Source: Candidatus Aenigmatarchaeota archaeon (GTDB lineage Archaea; Aenigmatarchaeota; Aenigmatarchaeia; JACPZZ01). Taken from it: 12,668 bases of DNA. A program made the position numbers and the translations under genes. The notes beneath the pieces were generated by a model. It did no database searches and was not told the origin of the DNA. It saw only the letters and a list, made by a program, of their open reading frames with translations. Below, in pieces: positions 1 through 12,523 of the stretch. How positions within the stretch are numbered: the first letter of the stretch is position 1; each line of letters begins with the position of its first letter. Location: positions 1 to 12,668 of the forward strand of contig JAZDLW010000008.1 of assembly GCA_043801595.1 (NCBI GenBank), in the 5' to 3' direction.

Positions 1-421
1 AATAAATATCGTTTGCTATATAGCTGCCGTTCTTCTTGAACCACACAGAAAAGGTCAGCTCGTTGGTCGGGTTTAAACTTGCGCTGCTTGCAACAGCAAC
101 GTAGTCGTTGGTGCCGTCAAACAGCAGCGCGTTCCCAAACCTTCCCTGCGTCAATCCGGATGTCGCGTTTCCGGTTAAATTCATATTCGTCAGCGTACCC
201 ATGTTTCCGTATCCCGAAGAATCGTTTGTCGCTGCCGAGCCGTTCGACTGTTCGAAACGCCAATAGCCTACCAAACCAGATGTGTTCATTGTGAACGTGC
301 CGTTCGAAACGATTAGGACAGGCGGGACGGCTGAAGCATGGGAAGATAATAATACCAGGAAAACCAGACTGAACACCCAAAGGCTTGTCATGCGGGTTGT
401 TGCGTTTATGGAAAGCGTCAT
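1..421 (-). CDS. Secreted/surface LamG-like jellyroll (ConA-like lectin) domain protein; N-terminal part only, runs off the window
   Basis: Not in the ORF track; translated by hand. ATG at 421 overlaps the TGA of the upstream HTH gene (ATGA). Open to position 1: MTLSINATTRMTSLWVFSLVFLVLLSSHASA-VPPVLIVSNGTFTMNTSGLVGYWRFEQSNGSAATNDSSGYGNMGTL...GRFGNALLFDGTNDYVAVASSASLNPTNELTFSVWFK. Signal peptide ends in A-S-A; GLVGYWxF, DSSGxGNxG and ALxFDGxNDYV are typical LamG motifs. Confidence 0.9.
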   Translation of the reverse strand, partial: MTLSINATTRMTSLWVFSLVFLVLLSSHASAVPPVLIVSNGTFTMNTSGLVGYWRFEQSNGSAATNDSSGYGNMGTLTNMNLTGNATSGLTQGRFGNALLFDGTNDYVAVASSASLNPTNELTFSVWFKKNGSYIANDIY

Positions 422-1045: not shown

Positions 1046-2041
1046 TCAGCACGTCACAGACGTCTCAGCAGCGTTTGACGACGTCGCAATTCTGATAGTG
1101 TGCCTGCCTGCGATCGCCGGATAGAAAACAACTAATTTGGATCTGCTGGGCTGGATATCTAGGTCGCCTACTGCGCGGTTGTATATTTTAACGTCGTCTA
1201 TCAAGCCTTTGGCTTCTCTGTCAACGTTGTTGTCCTTGCCTATTTCTAAGTTTGAGCCTGGAAACAGCACAATAGAACCTGTTTTTGAAGGCATTGTGTT
1301 GTCACGTTTGCCGTCAAGGTAAAGCGTAACACCATCCGTTGCACTTTTCACAGCTGTAAGATGATGCCAGCCAGCTCCGCGGAGGTCTATAGAAAAGGTA
1401 GGACCTGCGGTTAGAGTTCCATCACCAAATAAGGCGCTCAACGCAGTACCGCTGCCCTGCCACACCCATCCTCTCGTTGAGTCGTGGCCATGACTAATCG
1501 GATCATAAAATGAGTTGATCTGAATTGCATCCAAATTTATCCACATCATAACTACGAAGTTGTTTACCATCTGCAAACTGGTCGGATTGCCGACGCTCAC
1601 ATAATCATTGTCACCGTCAAATTTCAATGCATTTTTCGACAATCCTGCAGTCTGAACAGGACAATCTGGGCATGACGGCATAAGATTGCCGTTGTTACCA
1701 TTGCCGGAGCTGTCTGCTGCCGTCGCACCAGAAGCTTCGTCGAATTTCCAATATCCAACTAAACCAGAACTCATGTCGCCGAAAAACGGCGTTCCCAAAA
1801 CACTGTTGCCGTCGACCTGCGCAACCAAAATATCCTGCGTCGTTATCGCAGTATCGCCGTTGTTCAGGATGTAAACCCTGATGTCGCCGTTCGAACAGTA
1901 CGCCCCGCCCGGCATTATTGTTATCGCTTTTTTCGTGGATGATGAAATGAAACCGCTGAACCAGACATAAGAGGCGCCGACCAAACCAACAGAAATTAAC
2001 AGCAGCATTATCAGCGAAATCACAGGCGTTATGGCTTTCAT
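1046..2041 (-). CDS. Archaeal type IV pilin-like protein (class III signal peptide) with an internal LamG domain
   Basis: N-terminus MKA/ITPVISLIMLLLISVGLVGASYVW fits a class III prepilin signal plus hydrophobic helix. Residues ~92-291 are LamG (GLVGYWKFDE, DSSGNGNNG, ALKFDGDNDYV, WHHLTAV, LYLDG, GLIDDVKIYNRA). Confidence 0.88.
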   Translation of the reverse strand: MKAITPVISLIMLLLISVGLVGASYVWFSGFISSSTKKAITIMPGGAYCSNGDIRVYILNNGDTAITTQDILVAQVDGNSVLGTPFFGDMSSGLVGYWKFDEASGATAADSSGNGNNGNLMPSCPDCPVQTAGLSKNALKFDGDNDYVSVGNPTSLQMVNNFVVMMWINLDAIQINSFYDPISHGHDSTRGWVWQGSGTALSALFGDGTLTAGPTFSIDLRGAGWHHLTAVKSATDGVTLYLDGKRDNTMPSKTGSIVLFPGSNLEIGKDNNVDREAKGLIDDVKIYNRAVGDLDIQPSRSKLVVFYPAIAGRHTIRIATSSNAAETSVTC

Positions 2042-2269: not shown

Positions 2270-2298
2270 TATGAGCCCGACGAGCACTCCAGGCTGCT

Positions 2299-2328
2299 TT
2301 AGGGAACTTGAAGAATGTCTTCAGGTTA
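2299..2328 (-). other. tRNA intron 1 (30 nt) at non-canonical position 10/11
   Basis: UAACCUGAAGACAUUCUUCAAGUUCCCUAA must be removed to restore the D-stem GAGC/GCUC. It contains the hairpin AACCUGAAGA-CAU-UCUUCAAGUU, and its CCCU pairs with exon G4-G7. Confidence 0.85.
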
Positions 2329-2389
2329 CTACCCCGCTATGGAGTTAAGCTGTCGTTTTGCTTTCCTTGAAATATTGTCTGTATCTATG

Positions 2390-2397
2390 AATTTAAA
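2390..2397 (-). promoter_or_regulatory. Candidate TATA box for the tRNA-iMet gene
   Basis: TTTAAATT on the - strand. Usual archaeal spacing puts the TSS near 2366, giving a leader of about 28 nt. Confidence 0.4.
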
Positions 2398-3991: not shown

Positions 3992-4258
3992 CTATCTGCG
4001 GTATATGTTGTCATGATGGCCGAAATCCTCCAGAATAACTGTTTTATTTTGTTCATCGATAGAATATACGAGCACAAAATGTTTGTCTATGTGGACTCTC
4101 CTTAAGCCACTCATAATATTGCTGAGTGGCTTAAACCTGTACGGGTTTTCCAGAATTTCTTCCAATTTTCTGGAAATTATACCTAGCTGCTTTGGGTTCT
4201 TCTTCGCCAGCTTTTTGAACAGTTCGTCGATTTTAGGCCTGTTGCTGACAATATACAT
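3992..4258 (-). CDS. Type II TA toxin, RelE/ParE (YafQ-like) mRNA interferase
   Basis: 88 aa, basic; ILENPYRFKPL...LRRVHIDKHFVLVYSI...DFGHHDNIY matches the archaeal RelE/YafQ-like pattern. Confidence 0.85.
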   Translation of the reverse strand: MYIVSNRPKIDELFKKLAKKNPKQLGIISRKLEEILENPYRFKPLSNIMSGLRRVHIDKHFVLVYSIDEQNKTVILEDFGHHDNIYRR

Positions 4259-4259
4259 T

Positions 4260-4502
4260 TTATTCTAGCCCGTATCTTTTGCGAAAATCTTCAACGCTTC
4301 CTATCTTAACCGCTTTTTGTTTTTGGATCTTGCGCAGCTTTTTAATGTAATCCGGCCTTACGTCCTCGTCCATTACAAATTCCTCGAATTTATCGACGAC
4401 TTTTTCTATGGCTTGTGATTTATCCTTCAGGTCGTATTCCGCCTTTACCAGATTCAAAACCCTGTTTGTCCTTTCTTTTATGTCCACTATCGCTTTTACC
4501 AT
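4260..4502 (-). CDS. Antitoxin, DUF2683-like (ribbon-helix-helix type N-terminus)
   Basis: MVKAIVDIKERTNRVLNLVKAEYDLKDKSQAIE...VRPDYIKKL...SVEDFRKRYG. Ends 1 nt upstream of the toxin ATG. Confidence 0.8.
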   Translation of the reverse strand: MVKAIVDIKERTNRVLNLVKAEYDLKDKSQAIEKVVDKFEEFVMDEDVRPDYIKKLRKIQKQKAVKIGSVEDFRKRYGLE

Positions 4503-5465: not shown

Positions 5466-5723
5466 TCAAATCATATTTTTATAAATATTCTTTCTGTGCC
5501 CTATCAGCGTAACTTGAATCTTTCCGGTGCTTTGATCTATATCCGCTATTACCCTGTAATCGCCTACCCTTAGTTTATAGTCTTTTCTCCCTTCAAGCCT
5601 CTCAAAGTAATGAAACGGGGTTGCCTTCGTGGATAATATTTTCTTAAATACCCTTTCCCTTACGACTTTCTCAAGACTGTTCAGAAAATCTATTGCAGTC
5701 GGGTCAAACACGACTTCGTACAT
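5466..5723 (-). CDS. relE: Type II TA toxin, RelE/ParE family
   Basis: MYEVVF...YKLRVGDYRVIADID...IGHRKNIY is a classic RelE signature. Confidence 0.9.
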   Translation of the reverse strand: MYEVVFDPTAIDFLNSLEKVVRERVFKKILSTKATPFHYFERLEGRKDYKLRVGDYRVIADIDQSTGKIQVTLIGHRKNIYKNMI

Positions 5724-5963
5724 CTAAAAGCCCAGTCTCTTTTTTGCTTCCGCTTCCGTCAAAAAGTTGCCTTTTTTCATCCTTTCCCTTGCCTTCTCAA
5801 TAGCATTTACAGTTTCCTCACTGAGTTCAGGCTGCTTTTTCACATTCTTGGCTATGAAAATAACCTTCTGTATCACTTCTTCGTAACTCTCGTTACCATA
5901 CTCCTTAAACCTGTCAAGTTCTTGTTTTGTACTTTTATGTATCTTTATTGTTGTAGCTTCCAT
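5724..5963 (-). CDS. Putative antitoxin (RHH-like N-terminus) of the second RelE
   Basis: MEATTIKIHKSTKQELDRFK...ESYEEVI...ELSEETVNAIEKARERMKKGNFLTEAEAKKRLG. The stop abuts the toxin ATG (TAGATG). Alternative start at 5969. Confidence 0.8.
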   Translation of the reverse strand: MEATTIKIHKSTKQELDRFKEYGNESYEEVIQKVIFIAKNVKKQPELSEETVNAIEKARERMKKGNFLTEAEAKKRLGF

Positions 5964-5983
5964 ATGCATCGCCTACTTCATAT

Positions 5984-7718: not shown

Positions 7719-8504
7719 TTATGAGAAATGTTCTACGTAATTTTTGAAGCCTTTCTTGCCGTCAGGTTCGATTTCATCCGCTGCCTTGCCGAATCTTCTT
7801 TTTAGCGCGGAATAATGCGGGTGGTTTGTAATGTCGTTGAATGCCTCAAAGTGCGGCATTGTTACAAACACGTTGCCTTTTGTATTGCATACTCCTGCAA
7901 TGCCGTCAACCGAACCATTGGGATTTTCTGGGAATTTTGTCGCAATATCGCCTTGTTCGTCAACGTACCGTATCGCTATCTGGCCGTTTCTGTGTAGTCT
8001 TTGACGTACTGTATCATTCGCAACAACGAATTTTCCTTCTCCGTGCCGCACAGGCAGATAGATATCCTCCATTCCTCTCGTGAATACGCACTGCGAATCT
8101 TTATTCGCCTTCAGCCGCACCCAACCGTTGTAGAAAAATCCGGAGTCGTTGTATGTGAGCGTTACATCGCGTTTGCCGTTTTCGTTAAGGACGCCCGCCT
8201 TCAAAAGTATCTGGAAGCCGTTGCAAGTTCCGTAAGTCATGGTATCGCGCTCGAAAAATTCCTGCAGCTCGTTCCATACTTTTTTTAGTCGTTGTGACGT
8301 CGCTACGCCTGCGCCAAGGTCATCACCATCAGCAAAACCTCCGCACAACGCGAGTATCTTGTAATCCTTCAGGTTCAAATCATTGTCCAGCAACTCGTAA
8401 AGCGATGCTATTCTCGTATTCGCCCCTGCCACGCGCAGCGAATAATCTATCTCTTTTTCCGTGTTTAGTCCGTTTCCCGTGATGATCAAGCTGTTCGGTC
8501 GCAT
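7719..8504 (-). CDS. purQ: FGAM synthase glutaminase subunit PurQ (long form, 261 aa)
   Basis: GNGLN, GGFADGDDLGAG, GTCNGFQ (catalytic Cys), HGEGKF, NPNGS, MPHFE (His-x-Glu). ATG at 8504 overlaps the purL TGA (TGATG). Confidence 0.93.
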   Translation of the reverse strand: MRPNSLIITGNGLNTEKEIDYSLRVAGANTRIASLYELLDNDLNLKDYKILALCGGFADGDDLGAGVATSQRLKKVWNELQEFFERDTMTYGTCNGFQILLKAGVLNENGKRDVTLTYNDSGFFYNGWVRLKANKDSQCVFTRGMEDIYLPVRHGEGKFVVANDTVRQRLHRNGQIAIRYVDEQGDIATKFPENPNGSVDGIAGVCNTKGNVFVTMPHFEAFNDITNHPHYSALKRRFGKAADEIEPDGKKGFKNYVEHFS

Positions 8505-11500
8505 CAGTTCCACCCGAATGTTTTCTGCCATGAGTCCTTTAGCTTATACACATTGCCTGATAGCGCATCCTTGTTGTTGAATCCGCGTACGCGGAAACTG
8601 TCATCTTTCGCAACATAACCTATTGCCGCATACGACGTTCCGTTCATCGCAGCTTCAAATTCAGTTCTCTTTGTCGGATCGACTGTAACAACGAACCTGC
8701 TCGCCGATTCTGAGAACAGCGCCTTGTATTCTTTGTCAACACCTTTTCTCGGCAGCGCCGAGAGATCAAGTTCCATTCCGTACCCGCCCGCGAACGCGGT
8801 TTCCGCAAGCGCAACAGCCAGCCCGCCCTGCGACACGTCGTGTATTGATGCAGCCAATCCTTTTTTCGTTGCCTCGCTCAATGATTTGTACAATTTTTTC
8901 GCAGTCATCGCGTCGACAACCGGTACGCTGTCGCCGATCGCGTTGTGCATTGCGTAGAATTCGGAACCGCCCATCTCGTCTTTGGTAATGCCGAGAACGT
9001 ATACAATATCGCCCGGCGCTTTGGCTTCCATTGAAACGTAATTCCTAACATCATTCATCTTTGCCATTGCTGACATTGTTAACGTTGGTAACCCTGATAC
9101 GGTTTTCCTTGACCCGTTCTTGTCAGTGTATGTCGTATCTATGGTCATGCTGTCTTTTCCGGAAACACACGGCGCTTCGTACACTGTGCAATAGTCTTTA
9201 AGCGCAATGTTCGCACGCACAAGCTGCGCCATTTTTTGTTTATCCTTTAATGGCGACGGCCAGCAAAAATTATCGTTGAATACGATGCGGTCCATATCGC
9301 CTCCGACAGCAATGACGCCTCTTATCGCTTCGTCAATTGCATTGGCAGCCATGTGGTACGTGTCGATTTGTCCATACAGCGGGTTAATTCCGTGCGATAA
9401 TATTATGCCTTCGCGCGAATCAAGGAACGGCCTTATTACCGCAGCATCTGCCGGGCCGTCGTTTTTCGCTCCTACGAACGGCTTTCCGACGCTGCCGCCT
9501 TGAACCTCGTGGTCGAATTTACGCACAAGTTTCTCCTTGCTTGCAATATTCGGTCTCGCTAATATTCTAGTCAATTCCATAGTAAGGTCGCAGTTATCGC
9601 CTATCAAAGGATCGTCATTATGGATTATCCTGTTCCATTCTGCGTCAAGTTCCATTCTCGGAACGCCTTCGTGCAGGAATTCCATGTCAAGATGTGCGAT
9701 AACCTTGTCGCCGTGTTTTACATGGAATTTTCCGCTGTCAGTGAACTTGCCTACAACAATCGATTCGACCCTGTATTTCTTTGAAAGTTCGATGAATTCT
9801 TCGAGTTTTTCCGGCTTTACGGCAACGCTCATTCTTTCCTGCGATTCCGATATCAAAATTTCCCACGGCTGCATTCCTTGGTATTTCAGCGGAACTTTGT
9901 CGAGGTATATTTCACATCCTCCTGAAAGTTGCGCCATCTCGCCCAGCGACGATGACAAGCCGCCTGCGCCGTTGTCGGTTATCGCCTCGTACAAACCGCG
10001 GTTGCGCGCCTCTATCAGGAAATCGTACGCTCTTTTCTGGACAATGGGGTCGCCTATTTGCACAGCAGACGACGGCGACGCTTCGTGAAGCCCAGCAGAA
10101 GAAAATGTTGCGCCGTGTATGCCGTCTTTTCCAACCCGCCCGCCGACCATTATTGCAAGGTAGCCTGGCTCAACAATCTTTTCATGCGTTGCGCGTCCGT
10201 TTATTTCAGCAGGCATCATTCCTACCGAACCGCAGAACACAAGTGGTTTTCCGAAAAAGCTGTCGTGGAAAAATACCGAGCCGTTTACAGTAGGGATGCC
10301 GGTTTTGTTTCCTGCGTGCTCGATTCCCTTGAAAACGCCTTTTCGTATGCGGTTTGGGTGCAATATTGTAGATGGAATATAACCGTCGTAATTCGGATCG
10401 CCGAAACATAACACATCTGTGGAAGCGATTATTTCCGCCCCCATCCCTGCGCCGATTATGTCGCGGTGGCAGCCGTTTACTCCGGTAATTGCTCCGCCGT
10501 ACGGATCTTTTGCGCTAGGGCTGTTGTGCGTTTCAATCTTAAGCAGCATGTTGTACATGCCATTGAACTTTACGATTCCCGCATTGTCCTTGAAAACAGA
10601 AACGAGAACGTTTTTCCACTTTTCATTTTGCGATATTTCCTCAGTCGAGCCTTTTATGTAGGTTTTGAACAGGCTGTCTATGACAAACGATTCTCCTGTT
10701 TCTTTGTCTGTGTATCTTACCAGTGCATTGAATATTTTGTGTTTGCAATGCTCGCTCCACGTTTGTGCGATCGCCTCCAACTCGACATCAGTTGGTTTGC
10801 TTGACAATTCCAATGATGCCCGCTCCGCGACAAAGTCGGCTCTCCTGTATTCGTTGGAAATTTTATGCATTTCTTCGAGATTCAGTGAGAGCACACGCTT
10901 CTCACTTATTGTCATCAGTTGTTTGTCATCTACATCCAGGTCGATATAATCAACATTGATTTCATTGCTAGTCGTTACCCGTGGCACCTTACGTAGAAGT
11001 TTTTTGCCTCCCCATCCCCGGTAATTGTAAACATTCGCATCCTCGATAAGGGTGTTGGCCATTATTGTGGTCGCGGCTGTTTTCATATCTTTCGTAGTTG
11101 CGCCGGTAACGAAGAATTGTCTTGATGTGTAAGCCCTTTCGTCTTCGCCCAGTTCTCTGTCCAGAATTATGCCTGCGATTTCTTTGGCTGTGCGGCCTTC
11201 CGGATCGGAGACGCCGGGCTTTCTCGATATTTCCACCATCAGGCCCGCGTGCTCCTTTAAACTGATGCGTAACGTGTCCAGTAAACGGTGCATAAAACCA
11301 TTTTTTCCGTGCTCGCCAAGGTCTATTTGTTTGTCAACCAAGGAAAATTCTGTGACAGGATCCGTCAACTCTTCCTGCAGTTTTTTTATCTCTTCTTCGG
11401 AAATCGAAGCATCGAACGTGATCTTGCGCACGCTTCGGACTTTTTTTACATTTATTCCCGCGTCTTTCAGGTCGCGTTCTAGGGATTTGCCAGCTGCGTC

Positions 11501-11560
11501 CAAGAACTCGGGGTTTGTTGCAATCTGCAACGTTCGCGGTCTTTTTCTGGTAGAAACCAT
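8504..11560 (-). CDS. purL: FGAM synthase subunit PurL with fused N-terminal PurS-like region (~1018 aa)
   Basis: QTWSEHCKHKIF, DNAG, KIETHNSPS, DGIHGATFSS, DNGAGGL, SESQERM, DHEVQG, DNFCWP, SGKDS, HDVSQGGL, FSES. N-terminal LTDPVTE and PGVSDPEG segments. ATG at 11560 avoids overlap with the divergent gene. Confidence 0.95.
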   Translation of the reverse strand: MVSTRKRPRTLQIATNPEFLDAAGKSLERDLKDAGINVKKVRSVRKITFDASISEEEIKKLQEELTDPVTEFSLVDKQIDLGEHGKNGFMHRLLDTLRISLKEHAGLMVEISRKPGVSDPEGRTAKEIAGIILDRELGEDERAYTSRQFFVTGATTKDMKTAATTIMANTLIEDANVYNYRGWGGKKLLRKVPRVTTSNEINVDYIDLDVDDKQLMTISEKRVLSLNLEEMHKISNEYRRADFVAERASLELSSKPTDVELEAIAQTWSEHCKHKIFNALVRYTDKETGESFVIDSLFKTYIKGSTEEISQNEKWKNVLVSVFKDNAGIVKFNGMYNMLLKIETHNSPSAKDPYGGAITGVNGCHRDIIGAGMGAEIIASTDVLCFGDPNYDGYIPSTILHPNRIRKGVFKGIEHAGNKTGIPTVNGSVFFHDSFFGKPLVFCGSVGMMPAEINGRATHEKIVEPGYLAIMVGGRVGKDGIHGATFSSAGLHEASPSSAVQIGDPIVQKRAYDFLIEARNRGLYEAITDNGAGGLSSSLGEMAQLSGGCEIYLDKVPLKYQGMQPWEILISESQERMSVAVKPEKLEEFIELSKKYRVESIVVGKFTDSGKFHVKHGDKVIAHLDMEFLHEGVPRMELDAEWNRIIHNDDPLIGDNCDLTMELTRILARPNIASKEKLVRKFDHEVQGGSVGKPFVGAKNDGPADAAVIRPFLDSREGIILSHGINPLYGQIDTYHMAANAIDEAIRGVIAVGGDMDRIVFNDNFCWPSPLKDKQKMAQLVRANIALKDYCTVYEAPCVSGKDSMTIDTTYTDKNGSRKTVSGLPTLTMSAMAKMNDVRNYVSMEAKAPGDIVYVLGITKDEMGGSEFYAMHNAIGDSVPVVDAMTAKKLYKSLSEATKKGLAASIHDVSQGGLAVALAETAFAGGYGMELDLSALPRKGVDKEYKALFSESASRFVVTVDPTKRTEFEAAMNGTSYAAIGYVAKDDSFRVRGFNNKDALSGNVYKLKDSWQKTFGWN

Positions 11561-11611
11561 GGAAGAACACTTAGAATACTCTGGTAAATTATTTAAGCTC
11601 GGATTAATCCG

Positions 11612-12523
11612 GTGCGTATTAAACTTTATCCGCCGAACTATTATGCGATAAGCTTGCCGTTGTTGTTGGATGGGGCTGACTGGATTTACGATCCGGATGC
11701 GCACGATACGCCGATGCGTGTAGCGTGCCTCATGTCAGGAACCGGAACTAATGTGGTAAAAGTAATAGAACACCAGTACAAAACATATCGCGAAACAAGG
11801 CCTGACAGGCTTCCTTATGAAGTCGCAGTGATTTTTACCGATAATAAGAATAGCAGCGCTCGGCGGATCGCGGAAAAATTCGATGTCGCGTATGAATGCG
11901 AAGACATCAATGATTTTTACAGGAACATGGGTCATTCCAACAAACGCGACCTTTCCAAGAGGCCGGTCTATTTCGAACGCGTTGTCAAAAAGCTGGAGCA
12001 GTATAAGCCGGAACTTTACGTGCTCGGCGGCTTTATGAGCGTTGTGACAGAACCCCTGTTGTCAATGTGTCACGGTGTTAACGTCCATCCTGCTGATCTG
12101 GCTATAACTGAGAACAACAGGAGAAAATATACGGGTAGTAATGCGGTGTTGGACCAGATACTTGCCGGAGAAAAAACATTGCGCTCAAGCACGCACATTG
12201 TCAGGGAAAAGTTTGATTGGGGAGAGATTTTAATGGTGTCGGAAGGTGTATCCGTCGATATCGAGCGCGCTGCTGAGGAACTGGAAGCGAGAGGGTCGTT
12301 GAACGTCAGTTTCAATGCGATCACACTCGATTATCTCAGAAAACCGCAGCATCGCGAAACTGCGAAAAAAATAGCGGCCCGTCACCGTGACTGGTTGAAA
12401 ATAGACGGTGATTGGATTGTACTTCCCGAAACAGTTGATCGCATATCGCGCGGAATGGTGATCCTCGGAGAAAAAGGCGCGTACTTTAACTGCGTTCCGA
12501 TGCCGAACGGTTACAGGCTTTGA
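11612..12523 (+). CDS. purN: Formyltransferase, PurN-like (GAR transformylase); start codon uncertain
   Basis: MRVACLMSGTGTN phosphate loop, LGGFM, NVHPADL (catalytic Asn/His), STHIV...FDWG (catalytic Asp); lies inside a pur cluster. The true start may be a downstream TTG (~11654-11666). Confidence 0.8.
   Translation: MRIKLYPPNYYAISLPLLLDGADWIYDPDAHDTPMRVACLMSGTGTNVVKVIEHQYKTYRETRPDRLPYEVAVIFTDNKNSSARRIAEKFDVAYECEDINDFYRNMGHSNKRDLSKRPVYFERVVKKLEQYKPELYVLGGFMSVVTEPLLSMCHGVNVHPADLAITENNRRKYTGSNAVLDQILAGEKTLRSSTHIVREKFDWGEILMVSEGVSVDIERAAEELEARGSLNVSFNAITLDYLRKPQHRETAKKIAARHRDWLKIDGDWIVLPETVDRISRGMVILGEKGAYFNCVPMPNGYRL

Follow-up and report, generated by a model that had tools for sequence, protein, structure and literature searches.

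Why would the 5′ leader of a tRNA gene be complementary to the D-arm of its own tRNA? This question is raised by the initiator tRNA gene (tRNA-iMet, anticodon CAU) of a Candidatus Aenigmatarchaeota archaeon (assembly GCA_043801595.1, contig JAZDLW010000008.1). The gene is on the minus strand of a 12,668-nt stretch of DNA, which we will term the window, and is flanked by rnhB and a LamG/pilin-like gene. It is the sole initiator tRNA gene found in this genome (86% complete). An intron follows position 10 of the tRNA, and the leader can pair with the exon on the other side of that intron. We propose that the leader is probably a selected folding scaffold that acts in cis on the 5′-proximal intron. 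This reading is based on the sequence, the co-occurrence of leader and intron, the register of the pairing, a shift of the TATA motif, model energies, and the presence of genes for EndA and RNase P.

The gene consists of three collinear exons, all inside 249 nt. Exon 1 (positions 1–10; 2329–2338) begins with A1 at 2338, which pairs with U72. Intron 1 (2299–2328) is a 30-nt hairpin at 10/11, with a junction that is unambiguous by comparison with intronless kin. Exon 2 (positions 11–37; 2270–2298) contains the D-arm and the anticodon. Intron 2 (2126–2269) is a 144-nt multi-hairpin insertion at 37/38; its junction slides by up to 2 nt, and 3 of the 4 pairs of its central helix form. Exon 3 (positions 38–73; 2090–2125) does not encode CCA and is followed by a T-rich trailer. 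Archaeal initiator tRNAs are recognizable by A1:U72, a purine11:pyrimidine24 pair, the CAU anticodon, and three G-C pairs at 29–31:39–41. With both introns removed, the product has A1:U72, A11:U24, CAU, and the three G-C pairs, as an initiator should, and the exons agree with those of intronless kin. Neither ARAGORN nor Rfam gave a match in the window, so both miss this gene. It is not a split tRNA, because the exons are collinear and there are no halves from separate transcripts, and it is not a permuted tRNA, because the exon order is normal.

Exon 1 bases G4–G7 can pair with intron positions −3 to −6 (2304–2301) to form the 4-bp central helix of a bulge-helix-bulge (BHB) motif, as in the strict hBHBh′ form. 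(All four pairs form in a shifted register and three of four in the strict register.) In three sister genomes, this helix has a double change from G5:C to A5:U, in support of the pairing. The strict form has two 3-nt bulges; here the 3′ bulge is 3 nt and the 5′ bulge is 4 nt. Intron 1 fits the relaxed form (hBH / HBh′), with a 3-bp intron helix plus hairpin and a 2-bp exon helix that the leader would lengthen.

The leader helix described in the initial annotation, with 13 Watson-Crick pairs and two bulges, can be read directly from the minus strand. Leader segments CGACAGC (2355–2349, −17 to −11) and ACUCCA (2345–2340, −7 to −2) pair with UGGAGU (2291–2286), GCU (2285–2283), and GUCG (2281–2278), so the target within exon 2 is 2291–2278. 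(The bulges are 3 nt on the leader side and C25 on the tRNA side.) The proximal segment is antisense to U17a–U21 of the D-loop, and the distal segment forms 7 pairs with positions 22–29. The leader helix was also said to continue the splice-motif helix. It does lie on the same line, but the two would not stack directly, since an internal loop (U−1/A1 facing A14–C17) precedes the 2-bp outer helix.

The leader/exon 2 duplex has an energy of −17.0 kcal/mol. Among 3000 shuffled leaders, 21 pair as strongly, as does 1 of the 117 from intronless kin, but so do 223 of 3000 random 25-mers from the genome (which are more G+C-rich). The distal half contributes weakly: if the proximal 7 nt are held fixed, then 221 of 3000 shuffles of the remainder do equally well (p about 0.07), as do 3 of 117 real intronless leaders that were swapped in. 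The distal CGAC-AGC pairing occurs only in this genome and in one sister genome (G002), which also shares the TATA motif and its spacing. Chance is the likeliest status of the distal half, at about even odds. However, the proximal helix is short in both of these genes, so the distal reach into the anticodon stem may compensate.

Is the proximal pairing associated with the intron? We matched a D-arm pattern to 178 of 371 genomes of the class and took genes from 150 of the 182 matches. An intron-biased scan of species genomes supplied further homologues (for many of its archaeal matches, the submitters give the label Ca. Aenigmatarchaeota). The deduplicated set contains 117 intronless genes from the class, another 10 that also lack introns, and intron-bearing genes of three kinds: 10/11 (n = 27), 7/8 (n = 8), and 4/5 (n = 9). 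Genes whose D-loop is interrupted by an intron, or whose D-arm sequence differs, are outside this set. Before counting, we dropped two bacterial matches that are not tRNAs, an unclear case (L198), a doubtful 6/7 intron (L178), a 12/13 intron (L113), and an intronless gene with a short upstream region; L110/L227 was assigned to 10/11 by hand. Sister pairs were assigned by upstream similarity, and the p-values are too optimistic because kin are not independent of one another.

At least 7 contiguous leader pairs over G18-G19-A20 were present in 23 of 27 genes with 10/11 introns, which span 8 families, versus 10 of 117 intronless genes from the class. With a threshold of at least 6 pairs and only the class sample, the counts were 18 of 20 versus 26 of 117. 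The median leader duplex was −12.2 kcal/mol for 10/11 genes and −4.6 kcal/mol for intronless genes, and in all 6 of the families that contain both states (the window gene's own family excluded), the mean pairing was stronger in the intron-bearing genes. We applied the same test to a held-out metagenome set. Of its 124 loci, we set aside 72 that do not resemble tRNAs, as well as 9 repeats of earlier sequences and one at a contig end. Among the matches listed, at least 7 pairs were present in 14 of 19 10/11 genes versus 1 of 10 intronless genes, and at least 6 pairs in 17 of 19 versus 3 of 10. A viral scan gave 4 loci, none of them a new gene.

Along the tRNA, pairing is high at positions 17–21 and 24 and at background at 25–29, so, judging by sequence, the conserved leader element is an anti-D-loop. 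The test itself forces pairing at 18–20 (and position 21 is labelled 20b in this count), but the least variable pairs are 17a–20a, including 41/42 and 39/42 at two positions that the test does not force. Substitutions in the leader are mostly C-to-U or A-to-G and preserve pairing, and there is one double change, from A:U to U:A at 17a. Thus, the complementarity that was expected in related genomes with a 10/11 intron is conserved for the proximal half, while the distal half is specific to this lineage and covariation amounts to one case. Positions 26–29 are paired in 10–17 of 42 homologues, which is the background. This does not fit the initial annotation's proposal that the leader sequesters the top of the anticodon stem, at least as a general feature, and because of it an enforced order of intron 1 and then intron 2 is unsupported.

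If the leader contributes to the splice fold, then its register should depend on where the intron is. In the 10/11 geometry, the central helix pulls exon bases 4–7 or 5–8 from the acceptor stem, and the outer exon helix is just 2 bp (G2-C13 and C3-G12). If that helix is continued straight into the leader, then −5 faces G18. This is also the commonest arrangement observed (16 of 46 10/11 genes), and the partner of G18 is at −3 to −7 in 34 of 46. A triple pair from −1:10 is found in 10 of 13 7/8 genes and in 3 of 137 intronless genes. In 4/5 genes, where −2 and −1 of the leader contribute half of the central helix, a triple pair from −3:6 is found in 10 of 11, versus 18 of 137 intronless genes. 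As far as these alignments go, such a shift with intron position would not be expected of chance or of a neutral element.

The promoter has also moved. A TATA-like motif lies at −27 to −36 in 57 of 117 intronless genes versus 1 of 27 10/11 genes, and at −39 to −68 in 40 of 117 versus 19 of 27, so the leaders of intron-bearing genes are apparently longer. The candidate TATA box of the window gene is TTTAAATT (2390–2397, minus strand); TTTAAA starts at −59 (2397), 59 nt before A1. In intronless kin, the TATA peak is −28 to −35 from A1, so by that spacing transcription of the window gene would start near −26 to −32, and the leader helix would be inside the transcript. This is consistent with the earlier placement of the leader within the primary transcript. 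(A scan for sigma-70 promoters and terminators gave 0 sites; the scan does not cover archaeal promoters.)

Folding models also point to a role in splicing. We folded 25 10/11 precursors with 5 shuffles each (two genes were skipped). The real leader brought the median cost of forcing the central helix in the full precursor to 1.8 kcal/mol, as against 6.4 for no leader and 5.2 for shuffled leaders. The real leader lowered the cost in 24 of 25 genes relative to none and in 20 of 25 relative to shuffled leaders, and 7/8 and 4/5 genes showed the same trend. For the window gene, we also modeled the nascent RNA, in which both halves of the leader helix have probabilities of 0.52–0.99 until the 3′ acceptor strand emerges.

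The co-occurrence, the tracking of register, the TATA shift, and the lower folding cost in homologues favor two claims of the initial annotation: that a cis-acting leader antisense to the D-arm favors the splicing fold, and that intron 1 is spliced before the 5′ end is trimmed. In the mechanism that we propose, the start of transcription, the fold itself, the cleavage, and the order of events are predicted. Cutting would require G4–G7 to be paired with the end of the intron in place of the 3′ acceptor strand. Leader bases −3 to about −10 would extend the 2-bp outer helix by pairing with the D-loop (17–24), and this would keep G18 and G19 from joining the mature elbow. The fold competent for splicing would arise on the nascent RNA, and the leader would make it cheaper to reach in the finished precursor. 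A single L3-loop EndA would then cut, and ligation would let the cloverleaf displace the leader. As the leader helix is part of the splice fold, intron 1 would have to leave before RNase P trims the leader, which would occur only once the cloverleaf has formed. A single EndA gene was found in the genome (86% complete); compared with M. jannaschii, its product has 6 additional residues ahead of the catalytic His, and this insert aligns gaplessly with N. equitans. The L3-loop α4 EndA of DPANN archaea has been linked to disrupted tRNA genes by Kaneta (2018; PMC5829648), and the insert of this genome's putative enzyme resembles the L3 loop. There is also an RNase P RNA-like locus, which is below the Rfam cut-off, and a gene for Rpp29.

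Several observations weigh against this proposal. First, 3 of 27 10/11 genes, and 2 of 19 in the held-out set (among the matches listed), fail the 6-pair test; by eye, the helix in these five is 5 bp long, the complement is shifted or lies farther away, or there is a spare acceptor strand. Second, the tRNA side is nearly invariant, so there is one case of true covariation. Third, the models for the window gene itself are less favorable. The cost of its splice fold was 2.8 kcal/mol with the leader versus 4.8 without, and shuffled leaders gave 3.7 ± 1.3 (40 shuffles); a second setup gave 4.7 for the real leader, 5.0 for none, and 4.7 for shuffled. In its finished precursor, the leader helix and central helix have a probability of 0.01 and the acceptor stem wins, and unconstrained folding of the full precursor shows no leader helix. 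So, the expectation that the leader would aid precursor folding holds for the homologues, but the window gene has a small advantage or none in the finished precursor. Furthermore, its central helix forms on the nascent RNA about equally with or without the leader. Given this, it is more likely, according to the models, that the leader supplies the exon-side helix and delays folding of the cloverleaf than that it creates the central helix.

Finally, two genomes of the same genus (G001 and G005) are intronless at 10/11 yet retain the leader motif, so the motif alone is no proof of current function. Their upstream sequences are most similar to those of intron-bearing genomes (G001 to G004 and G005 to G006), which suggests two precise losses of the intron that left a relic leader. 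We also note 10/11 introns with similar hairpin sequences in two families (L082 and L161 in f18; L110 and L228 in f33). Transfer of a cassette between these families is possible, given this similarity.

Another explanation for the conserved pairing is that the leader chiefly shields the precursor from RNase P and that any help to EndA is secondary. RNase P recognises the tRNA elbow, so a leader that masks G18 and G19 would prevent trimming. The low variability of 17a–20a and the presence of the RNase P RNA-like locus and Rpp29 are consistent with this. However, the leaders of 4/5 genes pair with positions 6–8 and mostly not with G18/G19 (1 of 9), and the register tracks the splice geometry rather than the elbow. 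We consider a mainly protective role to be unlikely.

A third explanation, which seems less likely still, is that the complement is a now-neutral by-product of the intron's arrival, by an insertion or duplication that brought a reverse-complement piece. A spare upstream copy of bases 1–7 is present in 11 of 11 4/5 genes, 8 of 46 10/11 genes, and 2 of 13 7/8 genes, versus 2 of 134 intronless genes. The spacing between these copies and the TATA motif is mostly the ancestral one, as if they marked the former 5′ end, so the leaders of many intron-bearing genes evidently arose by insertion; the relic motif in G001 and G005 fits as well. But across 8 families the pairing has survived through G-U substitutions, even though the adjoining leader sequence and the introns (17–39 nt) have diverged, and three registers suit three intron positions. 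The window gene has no spare acceptor strand. We considered the spare copy as a genuine exon 1 and rejected it, as no fitting splice motif was seen by eye. Other arrangements include an iMet gene with a 9/10 intron and a spare acceptor strand (L299) and a possible 12/13 or 13/14 intron without leader pairing (L113). In L272 (1500–1630, genome G152), the first 8 nt of a tRNA gene are copied about 38 nt upstream with no evident 5′ intron, which could be a relic, and the iMet genes L024 and L203 are similar.

Fourth, the leader could be a regulated switch that gates the supply of initiator tRNA and orders the removal of intron 1 before intron 2. The models predict two folds that exclude each other and differ by a few kcal/mol. 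On nascent RNA, the distal helix of the window gene would occlude the anticodon stem, and this is the only initiator gene found. Also, introns are removed in order in C. merolae, with 37/38 last, according to PMC3728597. Nevertheless, positions 26–29 are not conservedly paired, many 10/11 genes lack the second intron, and across the homologues no sensor sequence or structure is conserved apart from the complement (nor is there an Rfam match in the window). As the leader also persists in two intronless genomes, the gate on initiator supply suggested in the initial annotation finds no backing here, and we view a switch as quite improbable. Lastly, chance complementarity, for which one could cite the random 25-mers and the 26 of 117 intronless leaders that reach 6 pairs (G-U allowed), is almost certainly wrong given the enrichment, its replication in the held-out set, and the tracking of register, which refute it for the proximal half.

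How does a leader scaffold compare to known systems? Archaeal tRNAs contain non-canonical BHB introns, with the extreme case at 3/4 in Thermoproteales, according to the text of Yoshihisa (2014; PMC4090602, citing Sugahara 2008). The window gene is similar in that a cis intron lies in a relaxed BHB outside the anticodon loop, there is a second intron at 37/38, and a non-cloverleaf fold is needed. By geometry, the 3/4 intron would also have to use leader bases. In contrast, positions 10/11, 7/8, and 4/5 are absent from the list in that text (its figure aside), and the text describes no leader–D-loop helix. Split tRNAs (Nanoarchaeum equitans, Caldivirga, and Desulfurococcales) and permuted tRNAs (Thermofilum pendens iMet and C. 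merolae) are alike in that pairing by a discarded flank builds the EndA substrate. As described in the sources available to us, their flanks pair with each other, replace the intron, and are removed by EndA. In the window gene, a true 5′ leader would instead pair with an exon within one transcript of normal order and would be removed later by RNase P. Precursors with several introns are also found in Methanopyrus kandleri, where the order of processing was observed rather than predicted as here (Su 2013; PMC3695527). According to the text of that paper, M. kandleri trims the ends before it removes introns, and the window gene's design needs the reverse for intron 1. Few of the insertions in Asgard tRNAs are placed in the acceptor stem by a recent preprint, and the portion of it available to us does not use the word leader (bioRxiv 10.64898/2026.10.13.758758). 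We found no paper on 5′ leader–D-loop pairing that supports a cis intron, in the main texts available and with figures and supplements aside (also including PMC12397907, PMC3239211, PMC4033280, and PMC3218864); Sugahara 2008 and Marck and Grosjean 2003 may show leader pairing at 3/4 or list these positions. Thus, BHB splicing with complementary flanks is the known part, and a leader–D-loop helix that serves a cis intron appears to be new.

A leader scaffold would have several implications. It gives a rule for how introns in or beside the acceptor stem can be tolerated, which requires that leader and intron co-evolve. It predicts a reversed order of processing (splicing and then trimming). It explains missing initiator tRNAs in DPANN annotations, such as the window gene. 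And it bears on intron gain and loss, because intron and leader must arrive jointly and because the leader has stayed on in two genomes that lack the intron. More speculatively, leader-dependent tRNA introns might be a distinct DPANN design. Leader, exon 1, and intron would have been gained as one cassette downstream of the old promoter, and the leader would be an obligatory part of the splicing substrate (the outer helix for 10/11 and 7/8 introns; the central helix for 4/5 introns, often with a spare acceptor strand). The elbow would be masked against RNase P, making a splice-before-trim checkpoint on the sole initiator tRNA. We regard this broader idea as a possibility that is more doubtful than the scaffold itself.

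A leader may matter for another tRNA of this genome. A tRNA-Ser(CGA) gene on contig C10 (2180–2325; L273), which ARAGORN mislabels as Met, is interrupted by an intron at 8/9 and (by eye) another at 30/31, and its leader contains a spare acceptor strand. The central helix of its 8/9 intron is in the minimum-energy fold only when the leader is included. A tRNA-Ser with a 5′-proximal insert was found in 2 of 198 genomes, this one included, which is too few for a test of other isotypes. There is a second Ser(CGA) gene on contig C3. Near 8181–8317 of contig C13 (minus strand) is an intron-bearing tRNA with anticodon UAU (Ile) by eye, which ARAGORN labels as Ser, and several further ARAGORN labels in this genome look wrong owing to non-canonical introns.

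Intron 2 is partly composed of a dispersed repeat that is found across the genus. Its two-hairpin module (2200–2263) recurs many times in genomes of the same genus (L005, L007, and L032–L042), in other tRNA introns, directly 3′ of tRNA genes, and at gene ends. A nested intron within intron 2 was rejected, as no fitting splice motif was seen by eye.

As for the rest of the window, the gene directly downstream of the tRNA (1046–2041, minus strand) fuses a pilin-like N-terminus to a LamG domain and is syntenic in part of the genus; a second, similar LamG gene starts within 2–421 (minus strand). Two small gene pairs (3992–4502 and 5466–5969, minus strand) resemble RelE-type toxin-antitoxin modules by eye. 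Finally, 7719–12523 contains purQ-, purL-, and purN-like genes (purN by search; purQ and purL by eye), biosynthetic genes that are unusual in a DPANN genome of small size.
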